A stretch of DNA of 64,000 nt from IMG/VR virus record IMGVR_UViG_3300037440_000222. One strand, written 5' to 3'. The notes beneath the pieces were generated by a model that searched no databases, was not told where the DNA came from, and saw only the letters and a list, made by a program, of their open reading frames with translations. Positions 8,817-9,242 of the stretch are shown piece after piece (within the stretch, counting starts at the first letter, position 1; the number at the start of each line of letters is the position of its first letter). The position numbers and the translations under genes are program-made. Origin of the DNA: a virus.

Positions 8817-8936
8817 TGGCCAGAGCAGGGTTTGAACCTGCCTTCTCTCACGAGATGTTCTAGTGTTTGTGAGTTCATCTGCGAGGCACGAGTTAGTTAT
8901 CGTACAAATTCAGCGAACTGAAACGTAACTCTGGCC
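8817..8936 (-). ncRNA. tRNA-like RNA A (acceptor + T arm, conserved extra arm, no anticodon arm)
   Basis: Acceptor GGCCAGA/TCTGGCC + A. T arm GCAGG-TTCAAAC-CCTGC. A TCTC-GTGA-GAGA mini-hairpin sits where the anticodon arm should be. The ~60-nt internal arm is homologous to that of 9110..9242. Confidence 0.5.
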
Positions 8937-9002
8937 ATATTGTTGATAGCTTGCGCTATCTGATGTTCGCGTATCGTCGTACAAACGTCAAGAACTGTTT
9001 GG

Positions 9003-9075
9003 TAAACAAAACGGGACTCGAACCCGTAACAGTTTTCGTTCAAGGAAAATGCGCTACCAATTGCGCCATTTGTTT
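9003..9075 (-). tRNA. class-I tRNA with anticodon TGA (Ser codon UCA) and genomically encoded CCA
   Basis: Acceptor AAACAAA/TTTGTTT. D arm GCGC-AATTGGTA-GCGC. Anticodon arm TTTTC-CTTGAAC-GAAAA. 5-nt variable loop CTGTT. T arm ACGGG-TTCGAGT-CCCGT. A73 followed by CCA (9002-9000). Confidence 0.6.
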
Positions 9076-9109
9076 GTAGGTTCCAGACAAGGCACGATTT
9101 TACGCTAGG

Positions 9110-9242
9110 TCGGGCGGGGTGGATTTGAACCACCGACTTATTCTTGATGAAAGAATCGTTCTTCCGGTGTTTGTATGTTCGGCAGCAGGCACGTTAGACG
9201 TACAAATTAGACGAACTGTAAACGTTACTGAACTACCGCCCG
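9110..9242 (-). ncRNA. tRNA-like RNA B (full cloverleaf, anticodon CAT, with a 55-nt arm inside the D loop)
   Basis: Acceptor CGGGCGG/CCGCCCG + A. D stem GTTC/GAAC. Anticodon arm ATTCT-TTCATCA-AGAAT. T arm GGTGG-TTCAAAT-CCACC. Insert GTTTACAGTTCG...GAACATACAAAC lies between D-loop residues AGTAAC and ACCGGAA. Confidence 0.5.

Follow-up and report, generated by a model that had tools for sequence, protein, structure and literature searches.

A 64,000-nt stretch of viral DNA (the window; IMG/VR record IMGVR_UViG_3300037440_000222) carries on its minus strand three tRNA-like RNA elements, which we call A (8936->8817), B (9242->9110) and the middle element (a tRNA at 9075->9000 and the sequences that enclose it), and these share a two-stranded arm with three helices, P1, P2 and P3, which we refer to as the module. 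We consider it reasonably probable (about 0.65) that this arm is a docking site for the phage's own Ro60 protein, which is encoded on the same strand, and that the elements are Y-like RNA partners of Ro60 in new topologies. The novelty would then most likely lie in the architecture of these Ro60-associated Y RNAs, and neither in a new class of tRNA nor in an intron. A first-pass annotation had described A and B and offered three roles for them, as Y-RNA-like partners, as decoys for tRNA-targeting nucleases or as excisable inserts; the first of these is now favoured by the fold of the Ro60 protein, by the way in which the arm travels with its gene and by the kinship of the arm with the stem of YrlA RNAs, while the last has turned out to be poorly supported.

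Three RNA elements share one module

The module is made up of strand X (GUUU-N-CAGUUC-N6-8-UUGUACG) and strand Y (CGUGCC-N5-9-GAACU-N-ACAAAC), which occur in the order X, short loop, Y in A and B, and in the order Y, tRNA, X in the middle element. The blocks reported earlier as shared between the inserts of A and B are real, and the core pattern CAGTTCGNNNAATTTGTACG has three matches in the window at up to three mismatches compared with a chance expectation of 0.28. The copy of the arm in the middle element had been overlooked; its strands are split around the tRNA, and it was found by a mismatch-tolerant search and then by a map of half-sites.

Element B (9110..9242) is a complete cloverleaf in which the module forms an extra arm in the D loop. 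It has the acceptor stem CGGGCGG/CCGCCCG followed by A, the D stem GUUC/GAAC, the anticodon arm AUUCU-UUCAUCA-AGAAU with a C at position 37, and the T arm GGUGG-UUCAAAU-CCACC. The whole of 9242->9110 aligns end to end with the Rfam tRNA model (47.7 bits, gathering score 29, E 3.5e-9) with one insertion only, of 65 nt in the D loop, and every base quoted earlier for this cloverleaf and its 55-nt D-loop arm was confirmed on the minus strand. The module inside B (9169..9223) consists of P1 (GUUU/AAAC), P2 (GUUCG/CGAAC), an 8 x 7-nt internal loop and P3 (GUACG/CGUGC) capped by the loop UCUAA.

Element A (8817..8936) has an acceptor-type stem (GGCCAGA/UCUGGCC followed by A), a T arm (GCAGG-UUCAAAC-CCUGC) and an ACC 3' end. 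The module (8865..8924; P1 GUUU/AAAC, P2 AGUUC/GAACU, P3 GUACG/CGUGC and a 10-nt loop) replaces the D and anticodon arms, and the place of the latter is marked by a 4-bp mini-hairpin with a GNRA loop (UCUC-GUGA-GAGA). The first-pass annotation had described this arrangement and concluded that A cannot decode, which is borne out from the sequence since the loop has 4 nt; B does not appear competent to decode either, with C37 and a D loop of 68 nt. The tRNA-like parts that flank the module in A and B do not align and are unrelated, as had been noted, and the description of the two as paralogous holds for the arms, which are homologous, but not for A and B as wholes, which represent two different conserved types of element. 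Folding stability measured against shuffled controls gave z-scores of -3.8 for A and -3.0 for B. Neither element was called by ARAGORN or Rfam at default settings, which reported only eight ordinary tRNAs, all within 4611-9075, and A had no match to the Rfam tRNA model (RF00005). It should be noted that A resembles tmRNA in having an acceptor stem and a T arm and in the absence of an anticodon arm, but it is without a tag reading frame, pseudoknots or G3:U70, and no tmRNA was called at A by ARAGORN or Rfam.

The middle element is composed of a leader containing the Y strand (9072..9096, from the half-site map, with its ACAAAC overlapping the 5' acceptor strand of the tRNA), a tRNA body (9000..9075) and a trailer containing the X strand (8978..8997, from the half-site map and covariation). 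In the minimum free energy fold the leader strand pairs with 8997->8978, and the leader-trailer module stacks on the acceptor stem. The body was called as tRNA-Ser by ARAGORN and scored 66.3 bits with the Rfam tRNA model; it carries the serine anticodon UGA on a class I shape from which the long variable arm is absent. It is probably a tRNA mimic, and its annotation as a decoding tRNA would probably be wrong. The other seven tRNAs of the window have no module, and the module is therefore not a general tRNA-processing signal. We also note a small hairpin with a GNRA loop (GAUAGC-GCAA-GCUAUC) at 8945-8960 on the minus strand, in the interval that separates A from the X strand of the middle element.

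The module in related phages

A blastn search with the region against GenBank phages gave no match, and scans with exact patterns (CAGTTCGNNNAATTTGTACG in IMG/VR and GTDB genomes, and AATTTGTACG..CGTGCC in IMG/VR) returned chance or coding matches only. The Ro60 protein of 512 amino acids (aa) has many homologues in metagenomes with 25–50% identity, and a profile scan of metagenome contigs for such homologues provided 80 further loci (the loci and contigs of relatives are labelled with L-numbers below). These contigs belong to syntenic phages with RtcB, LytR, ParM-like actin, UvrD, ThiF, DUF5131 and tRNA clusters, and one of them, L384, which was compared for strain variation, showed no difference from the window (100% identity). 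The module was found on some 20 distinct phage contigs, always on the strand of the Ro60 homologue, and the Ro60 proteins of these phages are ~27–50% identical to that of the window. Scans of IMG/VR from the module to Ro60 gave one true locus among the matches listed, L327, which is of the phage type of L162 and has a short stored flank.

The RNA genes occur in arrays of 3 to more than 10. The distance from the end of the array to the Ro60 start downstream of it is at most a few hundred nt in L159, L161 (where the gap is ~0.5 kb and contains one small open reading frame, ORF), L165, L169, L171, L172, L173, L177, L185, L190 and L206, and the arrays at these ~11 loci carry their own promoter and terminator. 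In the window and in L153, L154, L156, L162, L167 and L168 the array is found 3.3–6.2 kb downstream of Ro60 instead. A published but unannotated 595-kb huge phage genome in GenBank (LR756511.1; our locus L389 is the reverse complement of 279744-293240) has at least 11 module matches within 4.2 kb on the upstream side of its Ro60 gene, and the RNAs at 1800-4900 of L389 include stem-loops that contain only the module as well as a tRNA with the module in its D loop.

The settings of the module in these phages are varied. It forms a D-loop arm in a full cloverleaf, as in B, in L153, L161, L165, L171 and L173, and in this type the acceptor stem is similar and the T arm the same in some cases; the anticodon loop of B, UUCAUCA with C37, was found again in L173, and the remaining elements of the type read GAU, UGA or UUC. 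It lies between the D and anticodon stems in L153 and L162, and it replaces the anticodon arm of a cloverleaf ending in GCC(A), as in A, in L153, L159, L161, L162, L169 and L173. As a leader-trailer pair it surrounds complete tRNAs, for which 16 units were aligned, and in L153, L162 and L165 it surrounds a permuted tRNA(GUG) body, in which the 3' half precedes the 5' half with Y and X as borders, and the acceptor stem is closed by a GAAA, ACAG or UUCG loop. Finally, the module may be capped by a short loop or hairpin and stand alone (L156, L159 at 7150, L173 at 2479 and LR756511 at 4640-4690), and because some elements consist of nothing else, the module itself appears to be the functional unit. 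There are thus at least five ways in which this stem is wired to a tRNA scaffold: it takes the position of the anticodon arm, sits in the D loop, enters at the 26/27 junction or prolongs the acceptor stem, and it can also stand on its own. A second, separate conserved hairpin, ..GGGG..GCCCCCCUCA.., is also present in some arrays (L154 15003-15040, L156 14781-14818, L167 9011-9050 and L168 16934-16971).

The three helices first drawn for A and B are recovered in the relatives, where P2 and P3 covary. In closed modules (n = 19), 86.3% of cells were paired compared with 17–46% when the partner columns were slid, and the covariation score was 0.232 compared with 0.152±0.02 after shuffling. The leader-trailer units (n = 16) gave 90.6% compared with 23–48%, compensatory changes in all five P2 pairs, and a covariation score of 0.539 compared with 0.222±0.03, with none of 500 shuffles as high. 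When partners were shuffled with the geometry fixed by invariant anchors, 4.26 pairs were observed compared with 3.16±0.11, and none of 5000 shuffles reached the observed value. P3 changes as a pair in more distant relatives (GUACG/CGUGC, GGAUAC/GUGUCC and GCGCG/CGCGC). A covariance model of the closed form of the module (R1), searched over 887 kb, produced 33 matches at E<=1, all but one of them (32) on the Ro60 strand, and in the window it found only A (42.2 bits) and B (40.0 bits). The first-pass annotation had proposed that homologues from related phages be examined for covariation and for conservation of the shared block, and in these the helices covary and the block is conserved. The pairing often uses G-U, which is mismatched on the complementary strand, and because of this and of the single-strand orientation of the module, the pairing seems to act at the level of RNA and not as a DNA cruciform.

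Resemblance to YrlA RNAs

In 254 bacteria and 22 phages, a YrlA gene has been placed on the strand of the Ro60 gene at a distance of no more than 4 kb (Chen et al. 2014, PMC4201824), and the RNAs of the window share several features with YrlA RNAs (RF02553). Like these, they are encoded near Ro60 on its strand, and join a three-helix stem to a tRNA-like domain that includes T and D arms along with a stem of acceptor type (B has all arms and the middle element is a full tRNA, and A has the T arm and acceptor-type stem, with the D arm absent). The arrays just upstream of Ro60 in ~11 relatives are similar to the bacterial rsr/yrlA arrangement. The Rfam consensus of YrlA shows the same three nested stems as the module; its 3' strand, AaAcUuGucG (AAACUUGUCGCC in Salmonella, from a primer in PMC4201824), can be compared with X (CACUUGUACG), and its 5' strand, gaaCUAc, with Y (GAACUNAC), so that ACUUG on the 3' strand and CUAC on the 5' strand are common to YrlA and the module. 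On the 3' strand the stretch that the YrlA consensus has in common with the module is ACUUG(U)..CG, and the 3' end of the Salmonella RNA is CACAUAAACUUGUCGCC (from a primer in PMC4201824).

A bridge between the two is provided by distant relatives of the window RNAs. The Rfam YrlA model matches the core of RNAs in L227, L206 and L185 (36, 38.4 and 35.6 bits, respectively, E ~1e-5), and this core consists of a T arm, a closed acceptor hairpin and a D arm, flanked by 5' strands that are Y-like (..GAACAUACAAAC) and 3' strands that are X-like (..ACUUGUG.. or ..ACUUGCGCG). The range for distant relatives is 29.8–38.4 bits, which is below the gathering score of 69. The order of elements in YrlA (5' stem strand, T arm, closed acceptor hairpin, D arm and 3' stem strand) is present in L153, L162, L165, L227, L206 and L185, and does not occur in the window. 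There, A and B end at the acceptor stem and have a stem that is capped by a loop, B keeps four tRNA arms with the stem placed in the D loop, and in the middle element the stem continues outward from the acceptor of a whole tRNA. The window RNAs also differ from YrlA in that they are far below the Rfam threshold and belong to arrays of three to more than ten RNAs. The most fitting view of the module is that of a divergent YrlA stem, and A would be a circularly permuted YrlA which has its ends at the acceptor and its stem capped by a loop. The earlier statement that no described class of tRNA has such an arm needs to be softened, as the arm looks like a divergent and circularly re-wired YrlA stem. 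We note that a match to the YrlA model with 19.8 bits overlaps the T arm of the flanked tRNA of the window, and that a match to the twister-sister ribozyme model in L206 (1847-1921, 32.2 bits with a gathering score of 34), which overlaps the T arm, acceptor hairpin and D arm of the YrlA-like RNA there, was rejected as probably an artefact in which one stem of the model is deleted.

Other Ro60 systems can be compared in the same manner. The Thermus phage phiLo encodes a Ro60 which binds two Y-like RNAs, Yrl1 and Yrl2, encoded upstream of the gene (PMC12135203; PDB 9KOP and 9L5Y). As in the window, this is a divergent phage-encoded Ro60 with several Y-like RNA genes, but the phiLo RNAs are described as stem-bulge-stem structures with CGAA, and tRNA-like features are not mentioned in the part of that report available to us, whereas the window RNAs are chimeras with tRNA and lack CGAA. 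Deinococcus radiodurans Yrn1 and the metazoan Y RNAs bind Ro60 through a terminal stem and use a second domain to tether an effector (PNPase in Deinococcus), which is the division of labour we propose below. Yrn1 also has an element like a T arm and possibly an anticodon arm, but the module has no sequence similarity to the GGUCCGA helix of these RNAs.

A divergent Ro60 is encoded on the same strand

The first-pass annotation had placed a Ro60-like protein and RtcB on the strand of the RNA elements, and both were confirmed there. The 512-aa protein (14863..16401, minus strand) is predicted to contain a ring of HEAT repeats and a VWA domain with an intact MIDAS motif, the residues of which (D319, S321, S323, T382 and D406) are invariant. 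Its AlphaFold2 model had a mean predicted local distance difference test (pLDDT) score of 89.9, and the top 13 Foldseek matches to the model were all Ro60 (probability 1.0, template modelling scores of 0.51–0.66 and 14–16% identity). These alignments cover the full length over ~510–550 columns and include the Xenopus and human Ro60, D. radiodurans Rsr and the Thermus phage phiLo Ro60. At the sequence level the closest PDB match by phmmer was the phage TROVE protein 9l5y (E 0.0016), the protein belongs to phrog_850 'RNA-binding protein' (E 1.4e-11), and Pfam gave a weak VWA match alone. Judging by the predicted fold, this is a genuine but very divergent Ro60.

Anticodons of tRNAs flanked by the module

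The tRNAs enclosed by leader-trailer modules differ from others at the same loci in their anticodons. Odd anticodons or loops were found in 9/18 of the flanked tRNAs called by ARAGORN compared with 0/22 of the unflanked ones (Fisher p 2e-4), and these comprise four with A34 (AUG, AUU, AGU and AAC), three with stop anticodons (CUA, UUA and UUA) and two with abnormal loops. To our knowledge, A34 anticodons of this kind are essentially never used by bacteria. Stop anticodons are carried by the flanked tRNAs at L161 9367-9439, L168 17080-17150, L169 2575-2647 and L171 174-249 (ARAGORN gives CUA once and UUA twice; the L171 tRNA reads UCA by eye, and ARAGORN reports an abnormal loop there). The flanked tRNAs retain high tRNA scores and, in most units, loops of 7 nt. 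Because their anticodons look unconstrained, the flanked bodies are probably not ordinary decoders; the odd anticodons bear on a role as nuclease decoys, and may reflect drift, selection for diversity in such decoys, or regulated suppressor tRNAs. Standard tools overlook the module RNAs or mislabel them, for example as "tRNA-Ser", "tRNA-Stop" or "tRNA-His(AUG)".

Proposed function and alternative explanations

Bacterial Y RNAs mimic tRNAs. We propose that the module (P1, P2, a conserved internal loop and P3) is portable and would dock an RNA onto the Ro60 ring (14863-16401), in the form of a capped stem in place of the anticodon arm (A), a stem in the D loop (B) or a leader-trailer stem around a tRNA body (the middle element). 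Each RNA would have one part that binds Ro60 and a tRNA part that imitates tRNA for the attention of tRNA-handling proteins, and may thus tether the ring to such a protein, control access to the cavity of the ring, or both, as in other Ro60/Y-RNA systems. Candidate recruits of the tRNA part are RNase P, the CCA enzyme, RtcB, the E1-like neighbour described below and anticodon nucleases of the host. That Ro60 binds the module is something we infer from synteny and from the homology with YrlA. YrlA of Mycobacterium smegmatis is known to be cleaved by RNase P and to receive CCA, and the TROVE proteins of jumbo phages, together with a tRNA-like partner, have been proposed as a platform for RNA repair. 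Our search of the literature found no description of a Ro60-type stem in a tRNA D loop or around whole tRNAs. Our analysis suggests a use of Ro60 particles by phages in conflicts centred on tRNAs or in the repair of RNA, and the module family offers a set of natural "domain-swap" variants with which to ask what Ro60 binds and what the tRNA part recruits.

Several observations weigh against a Ro60-docking function. The Rfam YrlA model gave no match to A or B at E<=10, and none to the permuted relatives at the cut-offs of E<=0.01 and E<=1 used for these. The YrlA motif thought to contact Ro60 (GNCGAAN0-1G, and CGAA in phiLo) is absent, and the equivalent position of the module reads CGUGMC (N-CGUG(A/C)C) in all copies, with CG alone in common. 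A loop-capped Ro60-binding stem inside a tRNA is without experimental precedent. The array of the window is located 5.6 kb from the Ro60 gene, albeit on the same strand, and one contig with a Ro60 homologue of 43% identity (L170, 16.8 kb) has no module. Every relative was ascertained via the Ro60 protein, and the co-occurrence of the module with Ro60 is biased by this. Finally, the linkage of Ro60 to the array is roughly matched by that of three other genes, which encode an HNH protein, a ~290-aa protein and an E1-like protein.

This last point raises the possibility, which we regard as unlikely, that the partner gripping the module is not Ro60 but the ~290-aa protein, the ThiF/E1-like enzyme or the HNH protein. 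The order Ro60, ~290-aa protein, ThiF recurs among the relatives and an HNH gene is found just upstream of the array in many loci. The ThiF/E1-like enzyme, whose top PDB match is a tRNA t6A37 dehydratase (E 8.5e-6), might modify position 37 of the anticodon loop of the mimic. Set against this, the module resembles the stem of YrlA, the known partner of which is Ro60, the array abuts the Ro60 gene itself in L171, L172, L177, L185 and L206, and HNH proteins are DNA nucleases which are often mobile.

We would give similarly long odds to a reading in which Ro60 is retained as the partner and the phage grafts a Ro60 tag onto genuine tRNA bodies, with the ring holding tRNAs or pre-tRNAs whose anticodons evolve freely or read stop codons. 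These could serve as programmable decoys or sensors for host nucleases that target tRNAs, with RtcB resealing the cut RNAs, or the ring could gate the release of suppressor tRNAs. In an extreme version the arm is also excised, which would make this the first bacteriophage with tRNA genes that are protein-spliced or permuted.

It seems distinctly unlikely that the module acts in the processing or stability of a specialised tRNA operon, without any connection to Ro60, for instance as the site of a double-strand nuclease or as a clamp between leader and trailer that holds back RNase P and 3' trimming. Helices between leader and trailer are classic sites of processing, and many flanked units score 50–66 bits as tRNAs, including a class II tRNA-Ser(CGA) in L159. 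However, the conservation of the loops (ACUUG, UACAAAC and CC) exceeds what nucleases specific for helices would need, the stem-loops consisting only of the module and the A-type RNAs hold no tRNA to release, the other tRNAs of the same clusters have no module, and the anticodons of the flanked tRNAs are of a non-decoding kind, as judged from the proportion of odd ones given above.

The arm might also be a protein-spliced intron, and its split copies permuted or split tRNA genes, cut by an unknown endonuclease and sealed by RtcB, which is encoded in the window. In view of the acceptor hairpins closed by short loops, the module-only RNAs and the bridge to YrlA, this appears very unlikely. Removal of the insert could leave B with a canonical D loop (AGU..CGGAA), removal from L162 12050-12200 gives a perfect tRNA-Ile(UAU), and the 3' half of tRNA(GUG) stands ahead of the 5' half between Y and X in L153, L162 and L165. 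Archaeal introns with a bulge-helix-bulge, split tRNAs and the permuted genes of Cyanidioschyzon merolae similarly include inserts at non-canonical positions of tRNA and pieces bordered by a two-stranded helical motif, and in some relatives of the window the 3' half also comes first. In contrast to these, the module has none of the bulge-helix-bulge geometry (3-nt bulges and a 4-bp helix), with internal loops of 7–9 x 8–9 nt between 5-bp helices, and the permuted acceptor is a closed hairpin with a GAAA, ACAG or UUCG loop (two of which are classic stable tetraloops), like the acceptor hairpin of YrlA. Many of the module RNAs contain no tRNA, and the A-type and module-only RNAs offer nothing to splice. 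Position 37 of B is a C, and the anticodon differs among elements built like B. No Rfam ribozyme or intron match was found at E<=10 in 8780-9300, and scans of ~25 neighbouring ORFs against Pfam, NCBIfam and PHROG revealed no family of endoribonucleases. RtcB is only loosely linked, being near the Ro60 gene in L154 and L155 and absent within 10 kb in L157, L159 and L161.

A palindromic site acting at the level of DNA in recombination or homing, possibly as the target of the HNH protein and shuffling tRNA cassettes, is highly improbable. The HNH gene adjoins the array and the halves of the module are found in both orders around tRNA segments, as cassette exchange could bring about, but the pairing relies on G-U wobble that is mismatched on the complementary strand, all copies are on the transcribed strand between promoter and terminator, and the covarying helices and fixed loop motifs are typical of a folded RNA. 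There is next to no chance that A and B are ordinary tRNA pseudogenes from a recent local duplication, an outcome which the first-pass annotation had named as one that would undo it, as nothing but their proximity speaks for this, their flanks are unrelated, and comparative data contradict it in that both types are conserved separately, with compensatory changes, in phages with Ro60 proteins that are no more than 40–50% identical to that of the window.

Transcription unit and neighbouring genes

B, the middle element and A apparently form one transcription unit, as judged from the signals around them, which runs from a promoter at 9426 to a hairpin at 8806-8766. The promoter is sigma-70-like (TTGACA-17-TAGAAT, 9398..9426, minus strand), agrees with the consensus at 11/12 positions, and is located just past the HNH gene and upstream of the array; equivalent TTGACA promoters precede the arrays of L154, L156, L159, L161, L162 and L165. 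It is followed by a structured leader (9243..9392, minus strand) of three very stable hairpins, one of which, a 17-bp stem, immediately precedes B (RNAfold -47.5 kcal/mol, z -4.08). The probable terminator (8766..8806, minus strand), which we read from the sequence, is a GC-rich hairpin (GACGGGGGAGU...ACUCCCCCGU) followed by UUUU, and was left uncalled by a terminator scan, its loop being longer than 8 nt. Just 3' of the array, at 8666-8740 on the minus strand, there is a tRNA-Ala(UGC) whose 5' acceptor strand, GGGCGAG, is that of the B-type elements of L153 and L161, which hints that the B-type RNAs may stem from a tRNA of this kind.

The HNH endonuclease gene directly upstream of the array (9423..10037, minus strand; Pfam HNH E 5.6e-9) has counterparts in the same position in many relatives (including L153 10827-11384, L157 7337-7915, L159 6540-7118 and L161 8295-8936), and the block of HNH gene and array is placed either before the Ro60 gene or several kb after it. 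The neighbouring protein encoded at 10037-10591 had no relatives in IMG/VR. A 301-aa protein of unknown fold, for which structure prediction was poor (pLDDT 63), and the ThiF/E1-like protein (ThiF Pfam E 1.4e-15) are encoded at 12843..14640 on the minus strand, and the order Ro60, small ORF, ~270–310-aa protein, ThiF/E1-like protein is kept in L153, L154, L156, L157, L159 and L161. The RtcB RNA ligase is encoded at 26841..28133 on the minus strand (Pfam RtcB E 5.1e-69). PADLOC gave no match to a known defence system for Ro60, the 301-aa protein or RtcB. In two relatives a Gad2-family gene (PF26128, Gabija anti-defence) is found immediately upstream of Ro60 (L153 5496-6392 and L157 9046-9948).

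More widely, the minus strand of the window at 19285-28133 encodes an LCP-family (LytR_cpsA_psr) protein, a ParM/Alp-like actin, Rad52 and a UvrD helicase in addition to RtcB. The closest relatives of the terminase of this phage (42%) are in Streptomyces and Actinoplanes phages, and this likeness suggests that its host is Gram-positive.

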